32,000 bases of DNA from Pseudoalteromonas tetraodonis (GCF_002310835.1 NZ_CP011041.1:1290001-1322000); one strand, 5' to 3'. Shown: positions 4,804 through 26,679, counted from the stretch's first letter. Numbers and translations: made by a program. Notes: generated by a model from the sequence alone, not told the origin.

Positions 4804-4879
4804 GGGTCATTAGCTCAGTTGGTAGAGCAGTGGACTTTTAATCCATTGGTCGATGGTTCAAGTCCATCATGACCCACCA
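4804..4879 (+). tRNA. tRNA-Lys (anticodon UUU), copy 1
   Basis: 76 nt: GGGTCATTAGCTCAGTTGGTAGAGCAGTGGACTTTTAATCCATTGGTCGATGGTTCAAGTCCATCATGACCCACCA. It folds as a cloverleaf with anticodon loop CTTTTAA, T-loop GGTTCAAGTCC and an encoded CCA. Confidence 0.95.
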
Positions 4880-4948
4880 TTCTTTATTGTTAATAAAGTT
4901 TGGTCTTAATCGGCGGATTTACGCAATGTGTTAACAAACACAATGAGC

Positions 4949-5024
4949 GGGTCATTAGCTCAGTTGGTAGAGCAGTGGACTTTTAATCCATTGGTCGATG
5001 GTTCAAGTCCATCATGACCCACCA
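4949..5024 (+). tRNA. tRNA-Lys (UUU), copy 2
   Basis: Identical 76-nt sequence to copy 1. Confidence 0.95.
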
Positions 5025-5089
5025 TTCTCTATTGAATGGTTATAATCGGCGGATTTACGCGTACTTACTTTTTATAAGTAAACCAGAGC

Positions 5090-5165
5090 GGGTCATTAGC
5101 TCAGTTGGTAGAGCAGTGGACTTTTAATCCATTGGTCGATGGTTCAAGTCCATCATGACCCACCA
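5090..5165 (+). tRNA. tRNA-Lys (UUU), copy 3
   Basis: Identical 76-nt sequence to copy 1. Confidence 0.95.
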
Positions 5166-5234
5166 TTCTTTTTATATTAGAATGGTCTAATCGGCGGATT
5201 TACGCGTACTTACTTTTTATAAGTAAACCAGAGC

Positions 5235-5310
5235 GGGTCATTAGCTCAGTTGGTAGAGCAGTGGACTTTTAATCCATTGGTCGATGGTTCAAGTCCATCA
5301 TGACCCACCA
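5235..5310 (+). tRNA. tRNA-Lys (UUU), copy 4
   Basis: Identical 76-nt sequence to copy 1. Confidence 0.95.
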
Positions 5311-5381
5311 TTCTTTTTTATATTTAGAATGGTCTAATCGGCGGATTTACGCGCACTTACTTTTTATAAGTAAACCAGAGC

Positions 5382-5457
5382 GGGTCATTAGCTCAGTTGG
5401 TAGAGCAGTGGACTTTTAATCCATTGGTCGATGGTTCAAGTCCATCATGACCCACCA
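5382..5457 (+). tRNA. tRNA-Lys (UUU), copy 5
   Basis: Identical 76-nt sequence to copy 1. Confidence 0.95.
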
Positions 5458-5528
5458 TTCTTTTTTATATTTAGAATGGTCTAATCGGCGGATTTACTCG
5501 CACTTACTTTTTATAAGTAAACCAGAGC

Positions 5529-5604
5529 GGGTCATTAGCTCAGTTGGTAGAGCAGTGGACTTTTAATCCATTGGTCGATGGTTCAAGTCCATCATGACCC
5601 ACCA
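5529..5604 (+). tRNA. tRNA-Lys (UUU), copy 6
   Basis: Identical 76-nt sequence to copy 1. Confidence 0.95.
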
Positions 5605-5669
5605 TTCTTTACTGAATGGTTATAATCGGCGGATTTACGCAGCCTTACTTTTTATAAGTAAACCAGAGC

Positions 5670-5745
5670 GGGTCATTAGCTCAGTTGGTAGAGCAGTGGA
5701 CTTTTAATCCATTGGTCGATGGTTCAAGTCCATCATGACCCACCA
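5670..5745 (+). tRNA. tRNA-Lys (UUU), copy 7
   Basis: Identical 76-nt sequence to copy 1. Confidence 0.95.
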
Positions 5746-7106: not shown

Positions 7107-7196
7107 GGAGAGATGGCTGAGTGGCTGAAGGCGCACGCCTGGAAAGTGTGTTTAGGTTAATCCCTAACGAGGGTTCGAATCCCTCTCTCTCCACCA
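7107..7196 (+). tRNA. tRNA-Ser (anticodon GGA), class II with long variable arm
   Basis: Acceptor GGAGAGA/TCTCTCC. The D-loop and anticodon arm GAGTGGCTGAAGGCGCACGCCTGGAAAGTGTGT is close to my recollection of E. coli tRNA-Ser(GGA). Long extra arm TTTAGGTTAATCCCTAAC, T-arm GAGGGTTCGAATCCCTC, encoded CCA. Confidence 0.93.
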
Positions 7197-7382: not shown

Positions 7383-8624
7383 ATGGCCAGATCTACAAAG
7401 CAACTTACTGACACAGCACTAAAAAAAGCAAAAACTGAAGGTAAAGATATAATTTTATCCGATGGTAACGGCCTACAAGTAAAAGTTAGAAAGAGTGGCT
7501 CTAAGCTCTGGAACTTCAACTACTACCATCCAATTACAAAAAAGCGTGTCAACATGGGATTAGGTAAATATCCCGATATATCTATCGTCAATGCACGAAA
7601 ATTAGTCCAAGAAGCCAGAGAGTTGGTTGCTTTAGGCACTGATCCAAAAGAATACAGAGATACAGACCTTGCCCACAAACGAGCACAAGAAGAGTTAACA
7701 CTCAATAAAGTAGCATTAGAGTGGTTTGAGGTTAAAAAGCCTGATTTTACGCAAGCTCATGGCGAAGATATTTGGCGCTCGTTAAATAACCATATACTGC
7801 CGGTTATTGGTAAATATCCAATTGGCAAAATTAACGCACCACAAGTCATAAAAATTTTAAGGCCCATAGAGGCTAAAGGTACTTTAGAAACAGTTAAGCG
7901 TTTGAGCCAAAGATTAAACCAAGTGATGACCTACGCAGTTAATAGTGGTTATATTCAAGCTAATCCGCTTGCTGGAATAAAAGAAACATTTAAAAAGCCA
8001 CAAAAGCAAAACATGCCTTCGTTAAAACCAGAAGAGCTGCCTGAATTGATACAAACGCTTGCAACGGCATCAATTAAACGTGTAACTCGTTTTTTGATTG
8101 AATGGCAGTTGCATACCCTTACCCGCCCTGGTGAAGCTGCCGGTACGCGTTGGGATGAAATTGACTTTGAAAACAAGCTTTGGATTATCCCAGCTGAACG
8201 TATGAAAAAGCGCAGAGAGCATGTCATACCGTTATCACAACAAGCTATAGAGTTATTAGAAGTTATAAAACCAATTTCAGGGCATAGAGACTTTGTTTTT
8301 CCATCAGACAGAAACCCGAGAACTCATATCAACAATGAAACAGCTAATATGGCTCTAAAACGCATGGGTTTTGAGGGCCGTTTAGTAAGCCATGGCTTAC
8401 GTTCGCTTGGAAGTACAACATTAAACGAGCATGAGTTTAATCCCGATATAATAGAAGCCGCACTGGCACATGTAGATAAAAACCAGGTTCGTTCTGCTTA
8501 TAATAGAGCTGAATATATAGAAAAACGTAGAGAGCTAATGAACTGGTGGAGTGAGTATATAGAGAACGCATCACTTGGCTCATTATCTATGTCAGGTACA
8601 AAAAATCTAGCGAAGTTAGGTTAA
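7383..8624 (+). CDS. int: Tyrosine site-specific integrase, P4/CP4-57-like
   Basis: 413 aa. The N-terminal arm-binding region LTDTALKKAK...GLQVKVRKSGSKLWNFNYY is DUF4102-like. Catalytic-type residues are present: LTRPGEAAGTRWDEID (R), HGLRSLGST (H-x-x-R), LAHVDKNQVRSAYNR (H...Y). It lies adjacent to a tRNA gene. Confidence 0.9.
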   Translation: MARSTKQLTDTALKKAKTEGKDIILSDGNGLQVKVRKSGSKLWNFNYYHPITKKRVNMGLGKYPDISIVNARKLVQEARELVALGTDPKEYRDTDLAHKRAQEELTLNKVALEWFEVKKPDFTQAHGEDIWRSLNNHILPVIGKYPIGKINAPQVIKILRPIEAKGTLETVKRLSQRLNQVMTYAVNSGYIQANPLAGIKETFKKPQKQNMPSLKPEELPELIQTLATASIKRVTRFLIEWQLHTLTRPGEAAGTRWDEIDFENKLWIIPAERMKKRREHVIPLSQQAIELLEVIKPISGHRDFVFPSDRNPRTHINNETANMALKRMGFEGRLVSHGLRSLGSTTLNEHEFNPDIIEAALAHVDKNQVRSAYNRAEYIEKRRELMNWWSEYIENASLGSLSMSGTKNLAKLG

Positions 8625-8962
8625 TAGCCATAACTCATTTAGCTAAACAACAATTGTGTCTCGAAATTTGAATCTAGGAATGATTTTAGTTGGCCCATGG
8701 TTTGTAATTTATTGCTAGACATAATTTTTTTCGCGACATAGACTGAACTTAGAAAAAGGATTTTACAAGGATGTTCATTGATGAACACTTTATTTATACC
8801 CCCTAAAAATGTAATAACAGCAGAGCAACCCGCTCGTTTCAAAAGTGTATTAGTCTACAAATCAATATTTTCAGTGTTTTGCCCTGATTCATAATTATTA
8901 ATTAATTTTAATGATGGGCTTATCCATGCCTGAAAACATCATAATTATAAAGGAATAATTCG

Positions 8963-9355
8963 ATGTTTATACAAAACCTCAACAAAGCTCAACAAGAAGT
9001 GCTTCTCAAGTTAGCCAACGACCTAATGATCTCTGATGGTGTTATAGATCAAAGCGAAGAAGAATTGATTAGCTTTATTAAATCTCAGTGTACCGAAGGT
9101 GTATCTGAATTAGAAATCTTCAATCTAAGCGAAATCAAAGATATCTTTGACAGTAAAAAAGCCAAAGTCTCGATGTTACTTGAGCTTATTGGATTAGCTC
9201 ACGCTGATGGGGATTACGGTAAAGAAGAAATGGTTTTTATCAATGAAATAGCTTCAGTACTAAACATAAATGAAGCTAATTTAAATGAGTTGGAAAATTG
9301 GGTTAGACGTCAACTCGATTTAGTGAACGACTCAGTTATGTTCATGGAGGAATAA
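8963..9355 (+). CDS. TerB-like (tellurite-resistance TerB / DjlA-N fold) small protein
   Basis: 130 aa with two copies of the TerB-type hairpin motif: LANDLMISDGVIDQSEEELISFI and LIGLAHADGDYGKEEMVFINEIASVL. AAGGAA RBS. The stop is 2 nt before the next ATG. Confidence 0.6.
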   Translation: MFIQNLNKAQQEVLLKLANDLMISDGVIDQSEEELISFIKSQCTEGVSELEIFNLSEIKDIFDSKKAKVSMLLELIGLAHADGDYGKEEMVFINEIASVLNINEANLNELENWVRRQLDLVNDSVMFMEE

Positions 9356-9357
9356 CT

Positions 9358-10854
9358 ATGCCATTACCTTTATTTTTAGCGGGTGCAGCTATTGTAGCTG
9401 GTGGTTACGGAGTTAAAAAAGGGCTAGATGCGAAGTCTGACTATGATGAAGCTGATAGCATTAATAAGAGAGCTAGAAATATATTTGATGATGCAGAAAG
9501 TTCTTTAAATTCAAAACGTGAACAAGCAAATAGTTCAATGCTGGCTTTAGGAAGGACAAAATTCGATATATATGAGAATTCACTATTAAGTTTCGTGAAG
9601 AGCTTTAGTCAAATTAAAAATATTAATTTTAATGAGAGTGATATAAAAGGTTTAGAGTCTTTACCTGCTGTGGATAAAGCTGATTTAGAAAACTTAACTA
9701 ATTCCGTATTATCAACTCATGATGTTTTATCAGGTGGGGTTACAGCTCTTGGTACTGGTGGGTTAGCTGGCTTAGCTGCATATGGAGGAGTTGGTTTTTT
9801 AGGCACTGCATCAACAGGTACTGCAATAGGGTCTCTAACTGGTGTAGCAGCTACTAACGCTACTTTAGCTTGGTTAGGCGGTGGCTCGATTGCTGCAGGT
9901 GGCTACGGTATGGCAGGTGGTGCTGTTGTATTAGGTGGGTTAGTTGCTGGTCCAGTATTAGCTGTTGGTGGAATGATGCTCGCATCTAAAGCTGAAAGCG
10001 CAAAAATAGATGCATATTCAAATCGTGATAAAGCGAGATTAGCTGCTGAGCAAATGAAAACTGCTGAAGTCGTAACTGATGATATTCACCGTCGTTTTGA
10101 AGAAATTAATGATGTACTTCTTCGATTAAATACTTTCTTTAATTCTATGCTAAAAGAGTTTTGTGGCCTAGTTGCACGCAATATTGATTATTCAAGCTAT
10201 ACAGAAAATGAAAAAAAGCTAGTGTTTAAGGTAGCTGCTACAGCTAAGAGTATGAAGAACTTACTAGAAGTTGTAATAATTAATGAAGATGGCAGTTTAA
10301 CAAGTCAGTCAAACAATATTGCAAGCTTTGGAACGGCTATTATTGAAGGAGAACACCCTGAGCTAGCAAGTTTAGAACCAAACATTGAAGACCTTGATGT
10401 AAAGAAAGAGCCAGAGCCTAAAAAGGACTTAGAGCATTTCATTCGTGAGGTAAGTAGTCATATTGATGATCAAAAGTGGGTATATGCTTTATCACACGGT
10501 AAAAAGCTTAGAGATAAAACCGCATCAGCTGTAAAATCGTATGCACATGAAGACTATGAAGTTGATAGTGACTATAAGAGTGAGCCTTATGGTTTATTAG
10601 TGCTTATTGATACAACTCTTTTTGGTAGTGCCAAAGATGGTTTTTTCATAACTGACACGCATATTTATGGCAAGCCTTCTTACAATGATCGATTTAGCAT
10701 TGATATTAAGAAAATTAAATCAATCAGGGTTGATGATGATGATAGGGAGCTGAGTATAAATGGTGACTATTATGGCTACACACACACTGAAATTACTCCA
10801 GCGATGAAGTTAATTGTGAACGCAATTAAAAAATATTTAGAGCAATTTAAGTAA
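9358..10854 (+). CDS. Glycine-zipper membrane protein with coiled-coil flanks and C-terminal PH/GRAM-like domain
   Basis: 498 aa. Residues ~125-210 (nt ~9730-9987) read GGVTALGTGGLAGLAAYGGVGFLGTASTGTAIGSLTGVAATNATLAWLGGGSIAAGGYGMAGGAVVLGGLVAGPVLAVGGMMLAS, i.e. GxxxG-type zippers. The C-terminus YGLLVLIDTTLFGSAKDGFFITDTHIYG...IKSIRVDDDDRELSING resembles bacterial PH (YokE-like) domains. A GGAGG RBS lies inside the upstream gene's end. Confidence 0.7.
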   Translation: MPLPLFLAGAAIVAGGYGVKKGLDAKSDYDEADSINKRARNIFDDAESSLNSKREQANSSMLALGRTKFDIYENSLLSFVKSFSQIKNINFNESDIKGLESLPAVDKADLENLTNSVLSTHDVLSGGVTALGTGGLAGLAAYGGVGFLGTASTGTAIGSLTGVAATNATLAWLGGGSIAAGGYGMAGGAVVLGGLVAGPVLAVGGMMLASKAESAKIDAYSNRDKARLAAEQMKTAEVVTDDIHRRFEEINDVLLRLNTFFNSMLKEFCGLVARNIDYSSYTENEKKLVFKVAATAKSMKNLLEVVIINEDGSLTSQSNNIASFGTAIIEGEHPELASLEPNIEDLDVKKEPEPKKDLEHFIREVSSHIDDQKWVYALSHGKKLRDKTASAVKSYAHEDYEVDSDYKSEPYGLLVLIDTTLFGSAKDGFFITDTHIYGKPSYNDRFSIDIKKIKSIRVDDDDRELSINGDYYGYTHTEITPAMKLIVNAIKKYLEQFK

Positions 10855-10860
10855 CCTGTT

Positions 10861-10897
10861 ATTCGAGGGGGATACTGACCACCTCGAATCTTTTAAA
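10861..10897 (+). terminator. Hairpin, possible weak terminator or attenuator between genes 2 and 3 of module A
   Basis: ATTCGAGG (10861-10868) pairs with CCTCGAAT (10882-10889) around a 13-nt loop, followed by CTTTTAAA. Confidence 0.35.
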
Positions 10898-10922
10898 TAT
10901 ATTATCGAGCAATAAGCAGCTT

Positions 10923-12356
10923 ATGGAAAATACAAACTCTTCAGCGTCTATTTTGGGTGGGATCTATTCTCAACATTTAACGCAAGATATAACTGAGCGA
11001 ACATATCGGATATTCGGTGATGCAGACCAGCTATCTCAGTTTGCATCCAAATGGCAAAATGTAGTTGCTGATAAGTCTCAAGGTCATATGTTTGAGCAGT
11101 TAGAGACTATAAAATTTAACTTTGATGCCCTAAAAAAAGATAGCGACCTATATGCCAAAACTACTGCAAGTATGGGTTTACCTACAGATCCAGTTGACAT
11201 TATAATTTCAAACGGTAAAAAAACGATACGAGAGATACAGGCAAAGTCCTGTAACAGCGCGGCGAGAAGTGCGTTTGCTTTATCTCAAGAAAAGTATGAT
11301 GAAATGTTCCGCTTGGCTCCAAGTGATCAACACAGCAAAATAGAAGAGTTACTAAAGCAAAGAATACAAAAAGGCACGCTCAAAGCCGAAGATTATGAAC
11401 AGACACTCCGCAATCTAAAAAAGTCATTACAGCATGACGGTATTGCTTCAGAGGGAACAACCTACCAGGAAGCACTGGATGCAACAAATCAAGACCAAGC
11501 TGATAAAATAGCTAACAATTATAAGTTTAAATCTGCTGTTACTGATATGCATAAATCAGGTATGAAGGCTGGAGTTGTAGGGGCTAGTATAACTGGAGGG
11601 ATATCTATTTTAACTGGAGGCTACTCAGTAATAAAAGGTGAGAAAGATATTGCAGAAGCCTCTCTGAATACAGTAATTAACAGTGCAAAGGGTTTTGCAA
11701 CCGGTTATACCGTTACGGCGATCAGTAAAGGTATCACGCATTCTTCCTCTCATTTCTTAGGCGAGCAATTAGCTAAAAGTATCACGAGATCATCTGCGCC
11801 TGTTGCAATCGCTGTTGGAGTAGTTAATACAAGTAAGCACATAGTATCTTATTTAAAAGGTGATATAGAACTAGAAGAGTTAACCGATAATATAAGTCAT
11901 ATAGCTATAACGAGTACTTCATCTTTTTATTATGGTGCTTTGGGGCAGTTAGCGATTCCAATTCCTGTAGTTGGCGCCTTAGTAGGGGCGGGGGTTGGTT
12001 ATTTTATCGGGAATATGATCCATCAATCTGGTTTAGTTGCTTTAGGTGATAGTGCAGTCGTTAAAGCATCGAAAGAGCGCAGAGACCAAATACGCACTAT
12101 TTGTTTAGAAGCCATTCCACAAATTCAAAAAAATAGGGCTGAGCTTCAAAGCTTACTTGATAAACACTTTGCAGAAAGAGAACATATATTTGACTCGACA
12201 TTTTTAGCTATGGATTTGGCGGTAAGTAATACAGAACCAGATCAGTATATAGATGCTTTAAATTCTTTAAATGAAAGGTTTGACTGTGAGTTACCATTTC
12301 AAAACTTTGCCGAGTTTGATCAATTAATGCAAGCAGATCAGAGTTTTGATTTTTGA
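10923..12356 (+). CDS. Membrane protein with uncharacterised N-terminal soluble domain (possible PD-(D/E)xK-like) and glycine-rich TM segments
   Basis: 477 aa. The N-terminus has GHMFEQLETIKFN...DPVDIIISNGKKTIREIQAKSC. The Gly-rich hydrophobic segments are GMKAGVVGASITGGISILTGGY and LAIPIPVVGALVGAGVGYFIGNMI. The C-terminal part is helical. The stop overlaps the next start. Confidence 0.65.
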   Translation: MENTNSSASILGGIYSQHLTQDITERTYRIFGDADQLSQFASKWQNVVADKSQGHMFEQLETIKFNFDALKKDSDLYAKTTASMGLPTDPVDIIISNGKKTIREIQAKSCNSAARSAFALSQEKYDEMFRLAPSDQHSKIEELLKQRIQKGTLKAEDYEQTLRNLKKSLQHDGIASEGTTYQEALDATNQDQADKIANNYKFKSAVTDMHKSGMKAGVVGASITGGISILTGGYSVIKGEKDIAEASLNTVINSAKGFATGYTVTAISKGITHSSSHFLGEQLAKSITRSSAPVAIAVGVVNTSKHIVSYLKGDIELEELTDNISHIAITSTSSFYYGALGQLAIPIPVVGALVGAGVGYFIGNMIHQSGLVALGDSAVVKASKERRDQIRTICLEAIPQIQKNRAELQSLLDKHFAEREHIFDSTFLAMDLAVSNTEPDQYIDALNSLNERFDCELPFQNFAEFDQLMQADQSFDF

Positions 12357-12610
12357 TGGATTTCCCATGTACCAAATGCGGTAAATGCTGCTCAAACGTA
12401 AATTTATCACCTATTACCAGTTACCTGGATAGAGGCGATGGTACTTGTGAGCATTTTGATGATAACACCAAACACTGTAAAATTTACGACAATAGACCTG
12501 AAATTTGTCGAATAGAATTGCAGTTTAATAAATATTACAAAGAAAGATTTAGTTGGAACGAATTTATAGCAATCAACTTGGAGGTATGTGAAAAGCTATC
12601 TGAAAAGTAA
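12356..12610 (+). CDS. YkgJ-family Cys-cluster protein (CxxCxxCC, putative Zn/Fe-chelating domain)
   Basis: MDFPCTKCGKCC...GTCEHFDDNTKHCKIYDNRPEICR matches the CxxCxxCC / C-x-IY-x-x-RP-x-x-CR pattern of UPF0153/YkgJ. The ATG at 12356 overlaps the upstream TGA (TGATG). The track start at 12353 is a TTG. Confidence 0.8.
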   Translation: MDFPCTKCGKCCSNVNLSPITSYLDRGDGTCEHFDDNTKHCKIYDNRPEICRIELQFNKYYKERFSWNEFIAINLEVCEKLSEK

Positions 12611-13982: not shown

Positions 13983-14372
13983 TTGGGAGATCAAGTGTCA
14001 AATAATAAAGATGCCATGAAGGCAAAGTTTGAAGAAATTAAATCATCAATGTGGTTAAAAAAAGAAAATGTCAGAATCATTACTGATGAAAATCGTAATG
14101 CAGAGCCTGAGCAAGAATTGGCTTTTGTTCTTACTTTTAGTGAGGCCTTGGAGTTATATAAAAAACTTAAAAAAGAACATTACGCAGTTTCAATAAGCCA
14201 TACTGAAAAGTTTAGAAACATACCTGCAGGCTGGAATTTAACAACGTGTGCTTCTTATTATATGGGAAAAAGGACTTTGAAAGAGGTGGAAAATGATAAC
14301 ATTAATGTATTTATCGCGGCTGGAATTAGTGAAGAGGAAGCTATAGAGCTCGTTAGTTGTGAGAATGTATAA
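13983..14372 (+). CDS. Hypothetical protein
   Basis: An open frame of about 125-129 aa. The track start is a TTG; a GTG at 13995 preceded by GGGAGA is a plausible true start. No recognisable motifs. Confidence 0.5.
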   Translation: MGDQVSNNKDAMKAKFEEIKSSMWLKKENVRIITDENRNAEPEQELAFVLTFSEALELYKKLKKEHYAVSISHTEKFRNIPAGWNLTTCASYYMGKRTLKEVENDNINVFIAAGISEEEAIELVSCENV

Positions 14373-14458
14373 CGCTTTTTACAAAAAGCTTCAATGTTAG
14401 AAATAGCTTGAGGCCCCTTCAATAAATAATATTACAACAAAGACAAGGAGCTAGTTTT

Positions 14459-16438
14459 ATGAATAAAGCTGAAGTGCACCGCAAAAAAGTTCAAGAAATC
14501 CTCGACGGCAATACTTTACATGGTCACCAAGTGAGTGCTGCCACAAAAACATTTAATGCATTCTCTAATGATGTGAGAGCTGTAGTAACAGCAGCTGAAA
14601 TGCAAGCTGGTAAATCTGGAATAGCGTTAGCTTTGTGTTGTTTGCAGCGTTTAAGCCTTGATGATGAAACAATTTGCCAAAAGCGCTCACTTAAAGACAC
14701 ATTATACTTAGTTACAATGCCAGATACGGCTTTGAGAGATCAAGCAGAAGATGATTTAAGACTTGCAAAGAATGTGGTTGTTAGTAACTTTGTTAATTTC
14801 GAAAAAGCCTTAGAAACAGATTTTAAAGGTAACCCTCCTAAATTAATCATCATCGACGAATGCCATTATGGTTCTAATGTTACCGGTATCCGATATAGCT
14901 CTGTGTTTGACTATCTAGAACAAGAAAATGACTCTTGCAAAGTAGTGTTTATCTCTGCGACACCTTTTGGCGCTCTATATGGTGCAGAAACAGAGTACGA
15001 AGAAGCGCTAGAGGCTAGTTCTGAAGCTGAGGAAGAGCATAACGACAAGCTGTTAAAAGAATCAACTCAAGCGGCGAGTCAAGCGCTTAAAGACTCTATT
15101 TTACGTCGTGATTTTGGTACTCGGTTGGTTTTTCATAAAACGAGTGATGAATACTACGGCGTACGGGAGATGCTAAAAAACAATCGCTTACACAATTTAA
15201 ATGACGAAGAAAGGAACTTCCTGGTTGACTCTGTACACCGCAAAAACTTTATGCAGCAATTCAATACTCATGAAGGCATGGGCTGGTCATTAGTTAGAGT
15301 TCCAGCAGGGACAGCAATGGATGCAAAGCAGTTCTTCATATCTGAAGGTGTTGATGAGGAAAATATTTATATACTAGGAAATTCACTTTCTGGAGTGCCA
15401 GAAGATGAGCTATCTACTATTGATAGGTTTAAAAAAGCATTTGAAGACAGTGAATTGTTTGGAGAAAAGTTAGTCGCGATTACAGTTGCAGGTTGCCGAG
15501 CAGGAATAAACTTCGGCAATTTAATGAAGAATAACCTTATTTCTACTTGGGATAGCACAGTTGCAAGTGTTGCTGCTGTTGTACAGGCTAATGTAGGTCG
15601 TGCGTGTGGGTATCACGGTAATAATACTTCAATGCACTTTACAAATGGGAATGCAGCTGAAGCCTATGGCGCTATATTGGATTACCTAGAACGCACATGC
15701 TCCGATCATGCTGCGTCTGATTTTGATGGCTTAAGAGAGTTTTTTGAAGACGTATGCCAAGAGTACCAAGTAAATGGTTTGGATGTAGGTTTAACAATAA
15801 AATATAAAAGGCGTAGGCCCATAGGTGATGTTGAAACATTCGAAACAGATCACTATGTAGCAGTACCAGCAAGGCTCCTGGACCAAGACTACGACTTTTC
15901 CCAGCATACCCAAGATAAGCTTCTTTTAAGTGCTATAACGGTCTTACGGGAAGAGTTTATTAAAAATGGAGCGCCGTCGGTAAAAGGTAGCAGAGCCATG
16001 CGAGGTAAAAAGAAAAACTGGATAAAAGCCCAGTGGGTTAATGGTGATAGCTATGATAATCCAGAAAAAGCTGGTGTAGACGGCCCTCAAAAAGATAGAA
16101 CAATAATGCTTACCAGCATGTTAGATAATGATGAATATGTTGAGTTTAATAGAGTCGTAGCCCCAGGCTCTGGGGAATTAACTGAGAATAAGTCAGTTAC
16201 AGCAACGGTGTTTAGCGTTTACAACATATCAAGACGTAAAGTGTCTAAAACAATAATGACGGAAAAAGATGTATGGGACATGTGTGATTATTTTGATATC
16301 CCTCATGACGATACTCTATTTGTATTATACAAGCGTGGTGAGTACGACTTTGATAGAACGTTAGCAAAAAAATCCCACAATGAGTTACCTGAAAAGTCAG
16401 GTACATTGAGTGACGAATCACAGTTTTCGGTTAAATGA
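14459..16438 (+). CDS. SF2 helicase-like ATPase, paralog 1 (DEAD/DEAH-type core + unknown C-terminal domain)
   Basis: 659 aa. Motif I is AEMQAGKSG (GKS at 14609-14617), motif II IIIDECHYG (DECH at 14855-14866), motif III FISATPF. Motif V/VI-like strings are AITVAGCRAGINFG and VQANVGRACGYH. AAGGAG RBS. Confidence 0.8.
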   Translation: MNKAEVHRKKVQEILDGNTLHGHQVSAATKTFNAFSNDVRAVVTAAEMQAGKSGIALALCCLQRLSLDDETICQKRSLKDTLYLVTMPDTALRDQAEDDLRLAKNVVVSNFVNFEKALETDFKGNPPKLIIIDECHYGSNVTGIRYSSVFDYLEQENDSCKVVFISATPFGALYGAETEYEEALEASSEAEEEHNDKLLKESTQAASQALKDSILRRDFGTRLVFHKTSDEYYGVREMLKNNRLHNLNDEERNFLVDSVHRKNFMQQFNTHEGMGWSLVRVPAGTAMDAKQFFISEGVDEENIYILGNSLSGVPEDELSTIDRFKKAFEDSELFGEKLVAITVAGCRAGINFGNLMKNNLISTWDSTVASVAAVVQANVGRACGYHGNNTSMHFTNGNAAEAYGAILDYLERTCSDHAASDFDGLREFFEDVCQEYQVNGLDVGLTIKYKRRRPIGDVETFETDHYVAVPARLLDQDYDFSQHTQDKLLLSAITVLREEFIKNGAPSVKGSRAMRGKKKNWIKAQWVNGDSYDNPEKAGVDGPQKDRTIMLTSMLDNDEYVEFNRVVAPGSGELTENKSVTATVFSVYNISRRKVSKTIMTEKDVWDMCDYFDIPHDDTLFVLYKRGEYDFDRTLAKKSHNELPEKSGTLSDESQFSVK

Positions 16439-16442
16439 GTCT

Positions 16443-18302
16443 ATGAATCAAGCAGAAAAGCACAGAGAGTATCTAGAGAAAATAGTATCTAGTGATACTT
16501 TCGAACATCAACAGCATGCTGCACAAAGAGCATTTAGCCATTTTGAAGAAGGTAGTCGTGCTGTTGTAATAACTGCTGAAATGCAATCAGGGAAGTCTGG
16601 TATTGCATTAGCATTAGCTGCTTTACAAAGACTTAGTCTATCAGATACAGATATTTGTGATCGCTCAAAATTAAAAGATACACTTTATTTAGTCACCATG
16701 GCTGATTTGTCGCTACAAGAGCAGGCCAAGCAAGATCTTACCAAATGTAATAATGTTGTTGTGAGTAACTTTACTAATATGAGTCTCGCACTCTCAAGTA
16801 ACTTTAAAGCCCAACCGCCTAAGCTCATTATCATAGATGAATGTCACTATGGTGCAGGTGCTGAGGCCGTTAGATATGCTAAAGTTTTTGAGTATCTGGA
16901 AAAAGAAAACACAAACTGTAAAGTTGCTTTTATTTCAGCCACACCTTTTAGCGCGCTTTACTCAGCAGGCGCAGAGTCTATTCTTCGTCACGACTTCAAA
17001 ACCAGTCTTGTTTTTCATAAAGCAAGTGATGAGTATTTGGGCATCAGGGAGATGCACCGCAACAACCAAATAGTAAAGTTAGCAGAAGAACAGCGTAACT
17101 TTTGTGATGACTCTTTACTACGTAAGCGTTTTATAAGGCAGTTCAAAGAGCACCGCTCATCTGGCTGGTCACTAATAAGGGTGCCAAGTAGTCAGGCAAG
17201 CCTAGCAAAAAGTATCTTATTAGAGAACGGTATAGCTGAAGAGCAAATTATGGTTATTGGCCAAAAGCTGGTGGGAGTTGAGGAAAGTGACTTAGCAAGT
17301 ATTGACGATTTTAAACGTGAATATGAAGCAGCAGCAATGTTTGACGATAAAGTCATTGCAATTACTGTTGCGGGCTTTAGAGCTGGCATTAATTTTGGTC
17401 AAGAAATGAAGAGTACGCTCATTAATACCTGGGATAGCACAATTGCTAATATAGCTGCAATTGTCCAGGCCAATATCGGGCGTGCTTGTGGCTATCACTG
17501 TAATGCGCAGGCCAAACACTATACTAACCTTGATGCTATTAAAGCTTACAGCGACTTACTTAATCACCTTGAATTAAATAGTGATAAAAGCGACTTCGAA
17601 GGTTTACATGCAGTTTTTGAAGATATTTGCGCTAAATATGATGTAAGAGGTTTTGATAGAGGGATTCAAATCTCACCAAATAAGGAATATACCACTTCTT
17701 CTCGGAAGAAAGATGATACTCAAACATATTTAACCCAAAGTTATTTATCGGTTCCAGGTAAGTTAACTACACCGAACTACGATTACTCAAAATACACCCA
17801 AAATCCTTTATTACTTGAGGCTATTGATCTGATCAGGGCAGAGTTATTAAAAGATGATGGCCCACACCGAAAGCAGGGTAGAGCCCTTAAAGGTGAAAAT
17901 CAAAATTGGATCAAAGCGCAATGGGTAAACGGTGTTACCTATGATGATTACACTCCAAGCTGTGCAAAAAGCAGAGCAATAGAATTCACTTCATTATTAG
18001 GTCAAGACCATCCATTAGAATTCAATAAAGTAGTTAACCCCGGTGGTGGAGAGACGACAAAAGATAAACGCGTTATGGCAAGTGTGTTTAGTGTATATAA
18101 CCTGTCTAAAAAAACTGATGCGTTTAAGCGTTCTATGGATGATGACGATTTGCAAGAGGTAAGTGAGCTATTGGGCGTTGAACTTGACGATACAATAATT
18201 TTATTGTTTTTACGCGGTGAATATTCTGATGATTTAACAGTAGCAAAAGAAGAGCAATCAAAATTAGTAGCGTCGAATCTTAAAGATAAATCTATATTTT
18301 GA
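16443..18302 (+). CDS. SF2 helicase-like ATPase, paralog 2
   Basis: 619 aa from the ATG at 16443, which is 4 nt after the paralog-1 stop. The N-terminus MNQAEKHREYLEKIV aligns with MNKAEVHRKKVQEIL of paralog 1. It has the same GKS (16590-16598), DECH, SAT and QANIGRACGYH motifs and is collinear over its full length. Confidence 0.8.
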   Translation: MNQAEKHREYLEKIVSSDTFEHQQHAAQRAFSHFEEGSRAVVITAEMQSGKSGIALALAALQRLSLSDTDICDRSKLKDTLYLVTMADLSLQEQAKQDLTKCNNVVVSNFTNMSLALSSNFKAQPPKLIIIDECHYGAGAEAVRYAKVFEYLEKENTNCKVAFISATPFSALYSAGAESILRHDFKTSLVFHKASDEYLGIREMHRNNQIVKLAEEQRNFCDDSLLRKRFIRQFKEHRSSGWSLIRVPSSQASLAKSILLENGIAEEQIMVIGQKLVGVEESDLASIDDFKREYEAAAMFDDKVIAITVAGFRAGINFGQEMKSTLINTWDSTIANIAAIVQANIGRACGYHCNAQAKHYTNLDAIKAYSDLLNHLELNSDKSDFEGLHAVFEDICAKYDVRGFDRGIQISPNKEYTTSSRKKDDTQTYLTQSYLSVPGKLTTPNYDYSKYTQNPLLLEAIDLIRAELLKDDGPHRKQGRALKGENQNWIKAQWVNGVTYDDYTPSCAKSRAIEFTSLLGQDHPLEFNKVVNPGGGETTKDKRVMASVFSVYNLSKKTDAFKRSMDDDDLQEVSELLGVELDDTIILLFLRGEYSDDLTVAKEEQSKLVASNLKDKSIF

Positions 18303-18381
18303 TTTTTTATAATGATCAATATTCAGATAACTATCAAACTATTTATTTTTCTAAGTAAAGCATGGGTTTAAAGGAACTAGC

Positions 18382-20400
18382 ATGGATGAAAAAACGTTAA
18401 GCTTTATTGAGAAGGCACAGTCAGTTCATGGAGATACTTATTCTTATAATAAATCCATTTATACCGGTAGTAATATAAAATTAACTATTACTTGCAAGCA
18501 CCATGGTGACTTTGAACAAACACCATCAAACCATTTCAAATATCATTGTTCTAAATGCTCAAAAGGGGCTCAAAATAAAGCTAAATTAGAGAAGGCTTCT
18601 GCAGTATACTTAGATAAGGTCATAGCTGTTCATCACGATAAATATGACTTATCAAAAGTAAACTATACAGGGGCCAAAAATAAAGTAACAGTAGCGTGTC
18701 TAGAGCATGGCTTATTTGAAATAACAGCTCAGCACTTTTTAGCTGGTAGTGGGTGTAAACAATGTGGAAATAAAAATACAAGATTAAAAACTATCGATAC
18801 AGCTTCTAAATCTTTTGAATCAAAGGCTAGAAAGATCCATGGGGATATGTTTGATTATAGTAAAGTAAACTACAAGGGGACCACTACAAAGGTTACAATA
18901 ACCTGCCCAGAGCATGGGGATTATATGCAAACACCTCGCAAACACCTAGAGGGTTCAGGTTGCCATAAGTGCGCAATAGATAACTCTGTTTCAAGGCTGT
19001 CTACCAGTGTATTTATAGAAAGAGCAAAAATAGTACATAAAAATAAGTACAACTATGCAAAAACTCAATTTACTAAGTCACATGAAGGTATAATTATCAC
19101 CTGTGAAGAACATGGTGATTTTTCACAAAATCCACATAATCACTTAGCTGGCGCGGGTTGCAAACTCTGTGCTAATGAAAAAATAACCTACACTACAGCT
19201 GAATTCATAGACCGAGCCAATAAGAAGCATAGCTCTTACTACTCATATGAAAAAACAGAGTATGTTGCGTCAAAAGTTAAAGTATTAATTACATGTCCTA
19301 CTCATGGCTTATTTTATCAGAAACCAATACTACATTTACAAGGTTATGGGTGTAATCGTTGTGCGGCTATTAAACGTGGTAAAGACAGCAGCTCATCAAC
19401 CGCTGAATTTATACAATACGCAAATTTCATACATGATTTTAAATGGAATTATGACAAAACAAAATATATAAATAACCATACAAAAGTAATAATAACCTGT
19501 GATACGCATGGTGACTTTGAGCAAACACCTGGAAGCCATAAAAGTGGCAAAGGTTGCCCTAAATGCGGAATTATTAAGTCTACTGAGTCTGGAAAGGTAA
19601 AATATGAAGAGTTTTTATTAAGAGCTCAAAATGTTCATGGTGACAAGTATTTGTATGACTTAGTTAAATATTCTACATACGGTGAAAAGGTTAGTATAAA
19701 GTGCTTACTGCATGGTGTTTTTAATCAATCACCGACTTCACATATTAGAGGAGCAGGGTGCCCAACATGTGGTTTAGAGTCTTCTAGAGAAAAACAGAGA
19801 ATTCCATATAACGTCATACTAAAGAAAGCAAACGAAGTCCATAACTTCAAATATAGTTATGCTGAATGTAGTGATGAAAATTCAGAACGTAAATTACTCG
19901 TCTATTGTCCGGTACATGGAAAATTTGAACAGAAAATTGATGCTCACCTTAAAGGAATCGGTTGCCCAAAATGCAGTTGCATTAAGCGTAATATGCAGAC
20001 AGAAGAATTTATAGACAGAGCTAATGCAATACATAGAGGAAAATATGGCTATGAGTATGTTGACTGTAATGGCACTAAAAGAATACTAAAAATTGAATGC
20101 TATAAGCATGGTATATTTGAGCAAGTAGCTTCTCAACATTTAAAAGGCAGCGGTTGCAGAGACTGCTATGTGGATTCAACAAAACTTACCCTAGAAAATT
20201 ACCTTAAAGATTGTAAAAAATTACATGGTGATAAATATGGCTATTCTAAATTAGAATATAATACTATCAGAGACAAGGTCATTATTACTTGTCATACCCA
20301 TGGTGATTTCCTCCAAACAGCTCATGATCATAAACATGGCGGAGGGTGCCCCAAATGTGCTGAATATTTTAGAAATTTAGACAATAAAGACCCTGATACT
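18382..20400 (+). repeat. Ten tandem coding repeats (64-75 aa each) inside the zinc-ribbon/nuclease gene
   Basis: Repeat boundaries by residue are 1-75, 76-144, 145-210, 211-274, 275-342, 343-410, 411-478, 479-542, 543-606 and 607-673. Each keeps the C-x2-H ... H-x4-C-x2-C ligand set. They are diverged at the nucleotide level. Confidence 0.85.
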
Positions 20401-20709
20401 CCTTGTCACATATATTATTTGCAACTAAAAACAGAGCACCTTATTTTTTATAAAGTAGGCATAACAACGAAAAGCGTAGAAGAACGTTTTTATCGTTTGA
20501 AGAAAGATAATACCAAAATTTTGGATCAACTTAGTGCCCTGACAACTCTTGATAAAGCCATTGTTGCCGAACAAACCATATTAGAAGAGTTTGAAGAACA
20601 TAAACTCTTAATGTCAGATACTTTGGTGTTAAGTGGAGGTGGAACCGAGTGTTTTGCTGATGATGTATTAGGGATGCATGGCTTAGAATTAGAAGACTAC
20701 ATTACCTAG
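18382..20709 (+). CDS. Protein of ten zinc-ribbon repeats fused to a C-terminal T5orf172/GIY-YIG-like nuclease domain
   Basis: 775 aa. Residues 1-673 are ten modules with the pattern F(I/L)xxAxxxHGxKYxYxxxxYxxxxxKVxIxCxxHGxFxQxPxxHLxGxGCPxC. Residues 674-775 read PCHIYYLQLKTEHLIFYKVGITTKSVEERFYRL...AEQTILEEF...GGGTECF, which is GIY/YIG-R-E-like. AAAGGA RBS. Confidence 0.8.
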   Translation: MDEKTLSFIEKAQSVHGDTYSYNKSIYTGSNIKLTITCKHHGDFEQTPSNHFKYHCSKCSKGAQNKAKLEKASAVYLDKVIAVHHDKYDLSKVNYTGAKNKVTVACLEHGLFEITAQHFLAGSGCKQCGNKNTRLKTIDTASKSFESKARKIHGDMFDYSKVNYKGTTTKVTITCPEHGDYMQTPRKHLEGSGCHKCAIDNSVSRLSTSVFIERAKIVHKNKYNYAKTQFTKSHEGIIITCEEHGDFSQNPHNHLAGAGCKLCANEKITYTTAEFIDRANKKHSSYYSYEKTEYVASKVKVLITCPTHGLFYQKPILHLQGYGCNRCAAIKRGKDSSSSTAEFIQYANFIHDFKWNYDKTKYINNHTKVIITCDTHGDFEQTPGSHKSGKGCPKCGIIKSTESGKVKYEEFLLRAQNVHGDKYLYDLVKYSTYGEKVSIKCLLHGVFNQSPTSHIRGAGCPTCGLESSREKQRIPYNVILKKANEVHNFKYSYAECSDENSERKLLVYCPVHGKFEQKIDAHLKGIGCPKCSCIKRNMQTEEFIDRANAIHRGKYGYEYVDCNGTKRILKIECYKHGIFEQVASQHLKGSGCRDCYVDSTKLTLENYLKDCKKLHGDKYGYSKLEYNTIRDKVIITCHTHGDFLQTAHDHKHGGGCPKCAEYFRNLDNKDPDTPCHIYYLQLKTEHLIFYKVGITTKSVEERFYRLKKDNTKILDQLSALTTLDKAIVAEQTILEEFEEHKLLMSDTLVLSGGGTECFADDVLGMHGLELEDYIT

Positions 20710-20733
20710 GCTAGGCGAGTCTTTTCGAATCAA

Positions 20734-20760
20734 AAAAGCCGTTCTACTTGAACGGCTTTT
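20734..20760. terminator. Bidirectional rho-independent terminator
   Basis: AAAAGCCGTTC (20734-20744), loop TACTT, GAACGGCTTTT (20750-20760). The A-run and T-run flanks suit both convergent units. Confidence 0.8.
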
Positions 20761-20780
20761 ATAACAAATCTGTTTGTTAA

Positions 20781-20939
20781 CTATCTACAGGCTTTTGATT
20801 CTTCGATCATTGCACGTTGAACAGCTACTGTTTCTTTGATTACTTTGTCGAAGAATTTTCTCTTTTCTTTCGCTGAACCGTTACGTACAAATTCAGAAAA
20901 AGGCGTAGACTTAACTTTTTCACGAGATTGAACTAACAT
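20781..20939 (-). CDS. Small 52-aa ORF immediately downstream of the zeta-like kinase (not in the supplied ORF track)
   Basis: Minus-strand ATG at 20937-20939, preceded by AGGAG (complement of 20946-20950) at 6-nt spacing and 13 nt after the kinase stop. It translates to MLVQSREKVKSTPFSEFVRNGSAKEKRKFFDKVIKETVAVQRAMIEESKACR, with its stop at 20781-20783. The terminator follows. Confidence 0.55.
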   Translation of the reverse strand: MLVQSREKVKSTPFSEFVRNGSAKEKRKFFDKVIKETVAVQRAMIEESKACR

Positions 20940-20952
20940 GTCATACTCCTAT

Positions 20953-21669
20953 TTATGTTGAATTACCTATACCGGCTATACGCTCTAAGGACGCGCGATT
21001 ATACTTTTTGCCAAGTAGAGCGTCAATATCACTTACATTAAAGTAAGGCTTTTCTTTTGTTCCATCAAGGTTTTTTTCCATAAAAATAATATCTATATCA
21101 TCCTTGAAAATATTTTTTAATTCGCTGACCACACGTTGAGACTCTAAGAACTGATTTACAAAAACCTCAGGTGGAACCCTTCTTCCTTCAACTATTTCGC
21201 GAGCCTTTACTAAGCACCAAGCTTGTTCGGGATCTTGATAAACAAATATAACCAAAACGTAGCGATCTTTACGTAAAGAACGTTCAATATTCGACTTTGC
21301 CTTTTCAAAACTTGAAAGCGTAGAGTCGAGTAAAAAACTAACCTTTTTCTTTAAAGCTCTGTCATGTATTGCTTCCACTAAAATAGTTGCAGGTGTTTGA
21401 AATAGCGGAGAGTTTAACCCCTGGTAGTCATCAAACTCCTTTCTTAGTTCATCATTTTCTATGTGAACAACATCAACCCCATGCTCTTTTTTAAATTGCG
21501 AAATAATACTTTTAGCAGTCTCTGTTTTTCCTGCACCAGGGGAGCCCGCCATAAAAACAGATACAGCACTTTCTTCTTCTGGCAAATGATCAATCATACT
21601 TTTGGCAAGGGTTTTCTTCATTGCTTTAGCTTTAACTAGCGCTTTTTTTGTAATTTCTTCATCTGTCAT
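20953..21669 (-). CDS. Zeta-toxin-family P-loop kinase-like protein
   Basis: 238 aa. Walker A is FMAGSPGAGKTE, followed by VVHIENDELRKEF (the zeta/PezT-type D-x-x-R region). The size and layout are typical of the zeta toxin domain. Confidence 0.7.
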   Translation of the reverse strand: MTDEEITKKALVKAKAMKKTLAKSMIDHLPEEESAVSVFMAGSPGAGKTETAKSIISQFKKEHGVDVVHIENDELRKEFDDYQGLNSPLFQTPATILVEAIHDRALKKKVSFLLDSTLSSFEKAKSNIERSLRKDRYVLVIFVYQDPEQAWCLVKAREIVEGRRVPPEVFVNQFLESQRVVSELKNIFKDDIDIIFMEKNLDGTKEKPYFNVSDIDALLGKKYNRASLERIAGIGNST

Positions 21670-21702
21670 AATGTATCAAATTTAAGGTTAATTCACATAA
21701 AT

Positions 21703-21723
21703 AAAGGGGTTAAAAACCCCTTT
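21703..21723 (-). terminator. Hairpin terminator candidate after the TPR gene
   Basis: AAAGGGG (21703-21709) pairs with CCCCTTT (21717-21723). On the minus strand it is followed by ATTTATGTG. It lies 40 nt downstream of the stop at 21764. Confidence 0.5.
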
Positions 21724-21763
21724 AAATCCAGTAGTATACTAAAGATCACTTTACATTTTTGGC

Positions 21764-22984
21764 TTAGGTCATCCCCCAAAACTCAGATTTAATATCATCA
21801 GCATTATTGTTTTTATATATGTTTTCACTTATCAAGTAAGCTTGAGATTGATTGTTATTAACCATAAAGTGCTTATCATTCTTTTTATAAAGCTTAAATG
21901 CATAGTGGTATTGGCTTGAATATGTCGCAGTAGCTGAAAATACATTGGTGATATTATTTTTCGCTATAAATTGAAAAATAGCTTGAGCGACATAGTTTAA
22001 TCTTTCATCCCGGCCCATATTCATTGTAAACATTGAATGCGAACCTTGATCATCAAATGCAACAAATATCTCAATGACTTCATTTGAATCTTTAAAGATA
22101 AAGTTAACTACTCTACCGTCTAGCTTCATATCACCATCGTTATCAATTTCATATAGGTGGGAGGTTTCATTATTAACATACATAACCTCACCATTTTTAA
22201 CGATAAACATTATATCGACTTCAGCTTCTACTAGCCTCATTCCACCATTGTAATTGATCTTCTGATTGCTAATTTTATTAACGGTCTTAGAAGACTTGCT
22301 TATTGAAATTAATTTATTAAGTATTTTTGTTCTAATTTCAAACATTTTCTGCGGGTCACGGCTGAAGCAACAAAGAATGCCTTTAAAAAAGACAAAAGCC
22401 TGTTGAGTACTACTAGTTTCAGTAACATTTACAAACTCAGAATGATCAATACCGCAATTTAAAGCATACTCTTGGTGTACTCCACCCATTTCTTCAAGCT
22501 CTTTTATCTCCTCATTCACAAAGTGCTTAATAGCATTAAAATCGTTTTTTAAATGTGTATTACTTAAAACTTCAGCCCAGCGAGTTGTAAAATGCTCGAA
22601 GCCATCACTCGCTAGTTGCCCTCTAATTTTATCGCCATTTTGTTCTTCAAAGCTCAGAAATAGCTTTATTCGCTCTAGGTTTTGTAAAGCCATCGGAGAT
22701 GCATGCCCATCATCGAGAGATTGCTTCTTTTGTTCCATATTTATAACTTTAAGGTAATCATCATATGCCTCGAGATATCTCTCTTGAATCGCATAGCAGT
22801 TAGCTCTATTTAAATATACGTTTGAATGGTTTGGGCTGACTTCAAGTGATTTTGTAAAGAATAAAATAGCGTCATCTTGATTGCCATATTGATGATACTG
22901 AAGTGCTTGGCGAAAGAATTGTTCACCTTGGGCTTCTGCCTTAGGGTCCGTTTTAATTCTTGAGAAAAAGCTAAATAGAGACAT
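21764..22984 (-). CDS. TPR-repeat protein with uncharacterised C-terminal domain
   Basis: 406 aa. The N-terminus FFRQALQYHQYGNQDDAILFFTKSLEVSPNHSNVYLNRANCYAIQERYLEAYDDYLKVI is 2-3 TPR units; the remainder is unrecognised. An AAGGAA RBS lies in the 25-nt gap after the upstream gene. Confidence 0.7.
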   Translation of the reverse strand: MSLFSFFSRIKTDPKAEAQGEQFFRQALQYHQYGNQDDAILFFTKSLEVSPNHSNVYLNRANCYAIQERYLEAYDDYLKVINMEQKKQSLDDGHASPMALQNLERIKLFLSFEEQNGDKIRGQLASDGFEHFTTRWAEVLSNTHLKNDFNAIKHFVNEEIKELEEMGGVHQEYALNCGIDHSEFVNVTETSSTQQAFVFFKGILCCFSRDPQKMFEIRTKILNKLISISKSSKTVNKISNQKINYNGGMRLVEAEVDIMFIVKNGEVMYVNNETSHLYEIDNDGDMKLDGRVVNFIFKDSNEVIEIFVAFDDQGSHSMFTMNMGRDERLNYVAQAIFQFIAKNNITNVFSATATYSSQYHYAFKLYKKNDKHFMVNNNQSQAYLISENIYKNNNADDIKSEFWGMT

Positions 22985-23009
22985 ATTATTTCCTTATAAT
23001 AAGGTTGAG

Positions 23010-24605: not shown

Positions 24606-24615
24606 TTAATCAACC

Positions 24616-26670: not shown

Positions 26671-26679
26671 TTAATACAC

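Follow-up and report, generated by a model that had tools for sequence, protein, structure and literature searches.

What might four closely packed genes do for a bacterium when they ride as the first cargo behind an integrase, and when two of them code for proteins with long glycine-rich cores? The question is raised by a locus of Pseudoalteromonas tetraodonis that lies within a 32,000-nucleotide (nt) stretch of its genome (GCF_002310835.1 NZ_CP011041.1:1290001-1322000; this whole stretch is the window below, and coordinates are counted from its start). The genes, numbered 1 to 4 in the direction of transcription, encode a TerB-like protein, two proteins with predicted membrane segments and a small cysteine-cluster protein. 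A sequence-only reading of the same DNA had proposed a membrane-acting, abortive-infection-like module, and had known of no named system with this composition. The answer that we think likely is that the module is a four-gene variant of the Dionysus/PDC-M09 family of membrane-acting anti-phage systems, carried on an integrative defense island at a tRNA-Ser gene.

A name for the composition can in fact be found, and from two sides. In PADLOC-DB v2, gene 2 matches two models of PDC-M09A (E = 3.6e-30 and 1.6e-28) and gene 3 two models of PDC-M09B (E = 5.8e-19 and 1.1e-12). PDC-M09 requires adjacent A and B genes, which is what genes 2 and 3 of the window are; it has two genes and the status of an unvalidated candidate, none of its models is matched by gene 1 or gene 4, and a literature search found no paper that mentions it. 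On the other side stands Dionysus, whose components DinA, DinB and DinC correspond to genes 3, 1 and 2; the sequences DioA, DioB and DioC were taken from Table S1 of the Dionysus preprint, and DioA was compared through residues 1-399 of its 557. Gene 2 aligns with DioC at 37% identity over 323 amino acids (aa) (BLASTP, E = 4e-33), and a hidden Markov model (HMM) of the gene 2 family matches DioC end to end with 335 bits; DioC carries the same ATNATLAWLGGGSLAAGGYGMAGG block as that family, and itself matches PDC-M09A. Gene 3 matches DioA over residues 210-314 (BLASTP, E = 1e-8), and its family HMM scores 150 bits (E = 6e-45) in a match that takes in the N-domain together with the first membrane region. 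The assignments to DinC and DinA are unambiguous; the operon also encodes a small TerB-like protein, and predicted membrane localization and a genomic-island setting are common to both systems.

The experimental meaning of the assignment comes from the preprint, of September 2025, in which Dionysus lowers the plating of phiKZ-like jumbo phages in Pseudomonas aeruginosa more than 10^6-fold, protection requiring all three genes (bioRxiv 10.1101/2025.09.30.679545). DinA is annotated there as 'MAEBL + TM' (TM, transmembrane), DinB as TerB-like and DinC as 'alpha pore-forming toxin with four TM'; TerB is described as amphitropic (bioRxiv 10.1101/2025.09.30.679545). Cells outlive infection without taking up propidium iodide and are still protected at a multiplicity of infection (MOI) of 10; neither early infection vesicles nor phage nuclei form, and the system acts on the early infection vesicle of the phage, not on the host membrane (bioRxiv 10.1101/2025.09.30.679545). 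DinA and DinC form foci at the infection site, and an AlphaFold 3 (AF3) co-fold binds DinC to the C-terminus of DinA (bioRxiv 10.1101/2025.09.30.679545). A homologous system thus has an experimental anti-phage phenotype, and this supports the defense role proposed for the module; the label 'abortive-infection-like' is contradicted for the validated homolog by the survival of its cells, by their exclusion of the dye and by the choice of the phage vesicle as target.

The module is nevertheless not a copy of the published system. Its gene order is B-C-A, where that of Dionysus is A-B-C; its TerB protein has 130 aa against 211 aa, with marginal direct similarity; its DinC homolog has an extra 145-aa BnzA-like domain, unlike that of P. 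aeruginosa Dionysus; and gene 4 has no counterpart there, the downstream position being occupied by an unrelated 70-aa zinc-ribbon open reading frame (ORF). In the fetched loci most similar to DioC (42-44% identity), the genes run A-B-C, TerB is long (187-202 aa) and gene 4 is absent. It follows that the published Dionysus and the module of the window fall into different clades of the family.

How large the family is, and how tightly its members are bound together, can be seen from its distribution. Residues ~1-325 of gene 2 define it: a word-indexed search gave more than 4,300 matches, an exhaustive profile search gave 5,388 clusters (50% identity) at E <= 1e-3 and 1,338 at E <= 1e-30, and a scan of one genome per species confirmed DinC-like relatives in at least 490 species (490 of 600 matched stretches). 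The best 80 fetched loci, over all ORFs of which HMMs for the individual proteins were iterated, come from Gamma-, Beta- and Alphaproteobacteria, Campylobacterota, Desulfovibrionaceae, Bacillota, Fibrobacter, Spirochaetaceae, Synergistota and Marinimicrobia. Forty-nine loci are flanked by 3 kb or more on each side; in these, gene 2 has gene 3 as a neighbor in 47, gene 4 in 41 (84%) and gene 1 in 27; all four genes are together in 23, which bears out the co-inheritance that the sequence-only reading had set as a check on its four-gene unit. Divergent TerB or cysteine-cluster genes, sought at relaxed thresholds in the loci that seem to lack them, were not found. Eighteen distinct gene orders are seen across the phyla: 1-2-3-4 in Gamma- and Betaproteobacteria, 1-4-2-3 in Campylobacterota, and 1-4-3-2 or 3-2-4 in Bacillota, for example. 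That the genes stay linked through so much rearrangement argues strongly that they work as a unit.

Closer to home, the four-gene layout of the window recurs unchanged in Duganella, Vibrio vulnificus and V. alginolyticus; in Vibrio the module belongs to the variable cargo of mobile elements, beside a relaxase, a WYL regulator and umuDC. Pseudoalteromonas genomes have annotated homologs of genes 2 and 3 at 93-100% identity, and marine metagenomes contain the same island. A gene 2 homolog is present on 5 of 72,556 plasmid records and on none of the phage records, which makes a phage or plasmid origin unlikely.

The company kept by the module in the window is that of a defense island. Beyond the module are two helicase-like genes and a gene for a DUF723/T5orf172 protein, and then, on the opposite strand, a BREX locus with embedded DarTG and GmrSD, in which are found a zeta toxin, a tetratricopeptide repeat (TPR) protein, DarT1 with its NADAR antitoxin, PglZ, a GmrSD-like type IV enzyme (Orf5/HEC-06) and PglX. 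In other species about 15 of 79 genes directly flanking the module (~19%) match PADLOC families at E < 1e-8: five of these are WYL regulators, and ZorA, a type II restriction endonuclease, a type IV restriction endonuclease, DinG, AbiEii, PDC-S36, PDC-M15B, JukA, LeoA and LeoBC are represented by one each.

Several points weigh against assigning the module to the Dionysus family with full function. Identity to the validated system is only 37% for DinC and ~25% for DinA, the phenotype is known from P. aeruginosa only, and the direct similarity of the TerB protein to DinB is marginal. Since gene 4 is missing from the validated clade, in which the order is A-B-C, the variant may differ from it in function and in the range of its targets. 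None of the pore-former, PH-like and nuclease assignments gained a significant match in fold searches, and most immediate neighbors in other species are diverse housekeeping genes. Finally, the family occurs in Clostridia, Selenomonadales and Campylobacterota, phyla without known nucleus-forming jumbo phages; an early-infection-vesicle mechanism therefore cannot be general, and this argues for a trigger broader than the jumbo-phage vesicle.

The housekeeping neighbors would suit a different account, that of a Ter-type general membrane- or ion-stress module, in which TerB or TerD and the cysteine-cluster protein sense metal, redox or envelope stress, the glycine-zipper proteins stabilize or repair the membrane, and protection from phage is a side effect. 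Linkage to TerB, with TerD in its place in one lineage (including a TerD fusion), could be read in the same way, as could the very broad spread of the family over at least 490 species and 5,388 clusters, its rarity on plasmids and its absence from phage genomes. Yet the anti-phage effect of the homolog is specific and exceeds 10^6-fold, with no reported stress role; the window copy is the first cargo of an integrase-borne defense island; about a fifth of direct neighbors do match defense families; the Vibrio copies are variable mobile cargo; and a patchy, shuffled and fusion-rich distribution is typical of immune genes. We regard the stress account as unlikely. The same must be said of a toxin-like pore of the abortive-infection kind, by which the glycine-zipper proteins would depolarize the host inner membrane and kill the cell, with TerB and the cysteine-cluster protein as trigger or restraint: infected cells of the validated homolog are viable, dye-excluding and protected at MOI 10, there is no sign of a toxin-antitoxin relationship, and the genes are stably kept in many chromosomes. 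These facts stand against the long uncharged Gly/Ala-rich cores, which do suit membrane-perturbing proteins, against the preprint's classing of DinC as alpha pore-forming-toxin-like, and against the presence of the toxin-type systems DarTG and zeta toxin around the window copy.

A bacteriocin/immunity pair or a secretion-system accessory module is very improbable, and was rejected. Glycine-zipper composition is the one property that the module shares with some bacteriocins and secretion components (a weak match to Gly-zipper_Omp belongs here); no bacteriocin, immunity or secretion family is matched in Pfam, NCBIfam or PADLOC, no secretion genes lie nearby in the window or in related loci, and the N-terminus of gene 3 is hydrophilic, with no segment resembling a signal peptide. 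A variant of the Dionysus/PDC-M09 family thus remains the reading that we prefer, and the proteins can be considered one by one in its light.

The glycine-rich hydrophobic cores noticed by the sequence-only reading are present in both large proteins. In gene 2, the DinC-type protein, the core is a run of 88 uncharged residues (123-210; 30% Gly, 20% Ala), and 92-96% of 83 family members keep its residues N167 through G176. The AlphaFold 2 (AF2) model flanks the Gly-rich region with long helices (8-83 and 206-274) and gives the core itself a predicted local distance difference test (pLDDT) score below 35. Foldseek of the whole model against the PDB gave long-helix look-alikes only (best E = 0.12, unrelated coiled coils), and a sequence-profile search of the PDB gave nothing meaningful. 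The C-terminal domain (~355-498) is modeled at pLDDT 80-90 as seven strands and a C-terminal helix, and matches positions 5-94 of the 544-position PADLOC model of BnzA (E = 7e-8). Neither profile nor fold searches gave it a PDB match, and among 11 members no Pfam family recurs consistently, the one signal being EbsA-like (2 of 11 members, E = 0.003). The suggestion that it is a PH/GRAM-like sensor is made plausible by its predicted topology and the BnzA match. This domain is present in one subclade only: of 150 top family representatives, 22 are C-extended, 6 with the BnzA-like type and 16 with extensions that fall into at least 14 unrelated groups. Such swapping of C-terminal appendages is as expected for a specificity or sensor appendage. 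Two further arrangements may be recorded. In one metagenomic lineage (L006:1913-4269) the DinC-type protein is fused to a C-terminal TerD, and a TerD gene precedes it, replacing TerB; an uncultured gammaproteobacterial locus (L029:5021-9404) has two DinC-type paralogs, of 354 and 334 aa, in a single module.

Genes 2 and 3 have no detectable mutual homology (hhalign probability 0.2), and the idea that they are paralogs was accordingly dropped. Gene 3, the DinA-type protein, begins with an alpha/beta domain that has the look of an enzyme. It is modeled at pLDDT ~90 (helix 49-71, strands 77-80, 93-97 and 100-107, helix 113-120, strand 129-131); in 43 sequences reaching down to 13% identity, DioA included, G54, E58, N66, K108 and Y125 never vary, and D92 and Q106 hardly ever. 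E58, D92 and Q106xK108 fall in the first helix, at the start of the second strand and in the third strand of the model. A glutamate in helix 1, an aspartate at the start of strand 2 and QxK in strand 3 are the canonical positions of the PD-(D/E)xK enzymes. Matches of the domain are weak, however they are sought: Pfam Mrr_cat_2 is matched by one of the 43 members (E = 0.047), and short local Foldseek matches of the model include one to an MmcB-like protein (E = 1.6) and one to a protein with an Mrr domain (E = 1.9); no match to the PDB or to a profile reaches significance, and no Pfam family is found consistently over the 43 members. We put a nuclease fold at roughly even odds. The domain was not found in other architectures: all 37 of its profile matches are fragments, split genes or copies disrupted by an insertion sequence (IS), and all 37 still adjoin TerB and DinC-like genes. 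In Ectothiorhodospira sp. BSL-9 (L097:6001-12588) an IS with an rve transposase interrupts the DinA homolog, and at L098:5579-8592 DinA is naturally split into genes of 255 and 237 aa; the conserved N-domain residues are kept in both cases.

Beyond this domain, gene 3 has a helical linker and uncharged stretches at 216-237 and 327-366; the second contains GxxxGxxxGxxxG (351-363), and G341, G351, G355, G359, G363 and G375 are invariant in 50 homologs. The match to Pfam Gly-zipper_Omp has an E-value of 0.004. Foldseek of the whole model against the PDB reached E = 0.48 at best, with long-helix look-alikes only, and sequence-profile searches of the PDB gave nothing meaningful. At the C-terminal end the evidence comes from 'mini' loci, known from ten species, in which the gene 3 homolog has 130-165 aa and aligns solely to HMM positions 328-413 (window residues ~366-451), still flanked by the DinC-type and cysteine-cluster genes. 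Retention of the DinA C-terminal domain alone fits the preprint's AF3 prediction, with DinC on the C-terminus of DinA, and such loci define what we take as the putative minimal conserved core: DinC-type protein, DinA C-terminal domain and CxxCxxCC protein. Three observations on gene 3 stand apart. The DinA loss-of-function mutant of the preprint is H326A, and residue 326 of the tabulated DioA is K; DioA H296 aligns with the near-invariant H210 of gene 3, and a 30-residue numbering offset would fit, which makes this histidine an unconfirmed candidate for the mutated residue. The best BFVD match of the model is a 1002-aa 'J domain-containing protein' of Bodo saltans virus (E = 5.9e-5, 288 columns, 19% identity). 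Some homologs (P0135, P0144 and others) carry a precomputed Pfam match to PF26373.1.

The two small proteins had been named correctly from the sequence. Gene 1 matches Pfam TerB (E = 6e-9; 36.6 bits, cutoff 24.4) and a PHROG for tellurite resistance (E = 2e-6). BLASTP found no significant similarity between gene 1 and DioB, and the family HMM matches DioB weakly (18 bits, E = 1e-4); the correspondence to DinB is best taken as one of domain-level equivalence, not as demonstrated orthology. The protein also weakly matches DjlA, TerB-like domains being found in J proteins of the DjlA type. Gene 4 matches Pfam CxxCxxCC (PF03692; E = 2e-8; 35.2 bits, cutoff 23), and has what marks the YkgJ/CxxCxxCC family, an N-terminal CxxCxxCC followed by further conserved cysteines: among 62 family members its 8 cysteines (C6, C9, C12, C13, C32, C42, C52 and C79) are kept in 95-100%, and G30, Y45, R48, P49 and N75 are also conserved. 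Literature searches on CxxCxxCC with TerB, and on TerB with glycine zippers, gave nothing relevant; a mention of YkgJ in an SGI1-type island concerned unrelated cargo.

How might such a set of proteins act? What is established is the homology of the module to the validated relative, whose defense is non-abortive and membrane-associated, together with the four-gene linkage and the domain anatomy; from these we infer a mechanism of the following kind. TerB and the DinA-type protein would monitor a membrane-associated step of phage entry, as transferred from the P. aeruginosa experiments; the C-terminal domain of DinA would hold or recruit the DinC-type protein; the Gly/Ala-rich core of the latter would insert into and breach the membrane structure induced by the phage; infection would halt early, and the cell would survive. 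The BnzA-like, PH-like domain of gene 2 could be a swappable appendage that senses lipid or ligand and tunes recognition, the 8-Cys CxxCxxCC protein a metal- or redox-dependent accessory subunit required by most lineages, and the N-domain of gene 3, with its conserved E/D/QxK residues, an enzyme, perhaps a nuclease, acting on phage DNA once the compartment has been opened. Taken to its full extent, this would make the family a pan-bacterial, modular 'breach-and-cut' immune machine, and not a specialty of Pseudomonas against jumbo phages, in which the DinC-type protein opens the entry site or a membrane compartment associated with the phage, a membrane-tethered PD-(D/E)xK nuclease in the DinA-type protein destroys the DNA, and the CxxCxxCC protein is an integral metal or redox subunit; we offer that larger proposal tentatively, and consider it rather doubtful.

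The layout of the locus is summarized in the table. The four ORFs lie where the sequence-only reading had placed them, and form a tight operon: genes 1 and 2 are separated by 2 nt, genes 2 and 3 by 68 nt, and the TGA stop of gene 3 shares 'TGATG' with the ATG of gene 4 at 12356, which is likely the true start, as in the gene calls of metagenome copies. The gap and the overlap had both been noted before, as had a hairpin between the two gene pairs, which proves real: a perfect 8-bp stem that extends to 10 pairs (dG -14.4 kcal/mol, z -2.9), followed by CUUUU. Upstream are tRNA-Ser(GGA) (7107-7196) and a tyrosine integrase (7383-8624), 3' of which the module is indeed the first cargo. The AT-rich region in between presumably holds the operon promoter; sigma-70-like matches at 8868-8895 and 8930-8959 score 9/12 only, and shuffled sequence does as well.

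Features of the module and its surroundings in the window (coordinates from the start of the stretch)
Feature	Coordinates	Strand	Description
Gene 1	8963..9355	+	130-aa TerB-like protein, putative functional counterpart of DinB
Gene 2	9358..10854	+	498-aa DinC homolog; core residues 1-325 and extra C-terminal domain
Gene 2, residues 123-210	9724..9987	+	uncharged Gly/Ala-rich predicted membrane-insertion core, with near-invariant ATNATLAWLGGG block
Gene 2, residues 355-498	10420..10851	+	beta-rich C-terminal domain, PH-like topology, homolog of BnzA N-terminus
Gene 3	10923..12356	+	477-aa DinA homolog
Gene 3, residues 10-210	10950..11552	+	cytoplasmic N-terminal alpha/beta domain; candidate PD-(D/E)xK-like enzyme domain
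Gene 3, residues 327-376	11901..12050	+	glycine-zipper hydrophobic segment, GxxxGxxxGxxxG at 351-363
Gene 3, residues 378-470	12054..12332	+	C-terminal helical domain, putative minimal conserved partner of DinC-like protein
Gene 4	12353/12356..12610	+	85/84-aa YkgJ-type CxxCxxCC cysteine-cluster protein
Intergenic hairpin, genes 2-3	10861..10889	+	stem ATTCGAGG/CCTCGAAT
AT-rich intergenic region, integrase to gene 1	8625..8962	+	probable operon promoter region
BREX locus with embedded DarTG and GmrSD	20953-31873	-	extends past window end

Two other features of the window deserve mention. Upstream of nadA and the tRNA-Ser integration site are seven tandem tRNA-Lys(UUU) genes at ~70-nt spacing (4804-5745). 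Within the island, 14459-20709 holds overlapping superfamily 2 (SF2)/ResIII helicase-like ORFs (659 and 630 aa) and then the 775-aa DUF723/DUF4379/T5orf172 protein; none of these matches PADLOC, and the region may be an uncharacterized defense module.

The interest of the family extends beyond this island. Very few systems have been reported to attack the membrane vesicle in which jumbo phages shield their DNA, and Dionysus is one of them. In its published three-gene form it is one clade of a much larger, multi-phylum family, and most members of that family possess a cysteine-cluster protein as fourth component, which is missing from the published definition; the strictly conserved, enzyme-like N-domain of DinA is likewise not described in the preprint. 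Fourth component, enzyme-like domain, minimal core and cross-phylum spread are leads on a poorly understood mechanism, and together these points would improve the detection models of PADLOC and DefenseFinder.

It remains to place the module among other systems that it resembles in part. The sequence-only reading had observed that TerB is here without an ATPase or helicase partner, and so it is. Shango has a TerB-domain protein (SngA), as the module has in gene 1; neither the four proteins nor the downstream helicase-like ORFs (14459-18302, which lie ~1.8 kb and three small ORFs away from the module) match SngB or SngC, and Shango was set aside. The ter operon and the TerY-P triad were rejected as well, with no Pfam match to TerC, TerD, TerZ or the TerY-kinase-phosphatase set in the module and the ten ORFs downstream (13983-28503); TerD stands in for TerB in one distant lineage only. 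Bunzi comes nearer: BnzA combines TerB, TM helices and a predicted lipid-interacting domain in one protein (Millman et al. 2022), parts that the module divides between genes 1 and 2. The C-domain of gene 2 matches the BnzA model in its N-terminal 90 positions only, and there is no BnzB in the module or among its neighbors; the domain is shared, but membership is not. With alpha pore-forming toxins of the ClyA/Hbl/Nhe type the likeness, in the preprint's structural reading of DinC, is one of long helical hairpins and a hydrophobic tip; the hydrophobic element of gene 2 differs in being a long Gly/Ala-rich stretch, not a short beta-tongue, and Foldseek against the PDB found no significant match for the gene 2 model. 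Juk (JukA/JukB), finally, has no detected sequence relationship to the module, and resembles it in proposed action only: the Juk sensor recruits a pore-forming effector to the phage early infection vesicle (PMC13282480), and in one related species a JukA gene lies directly beside the module.

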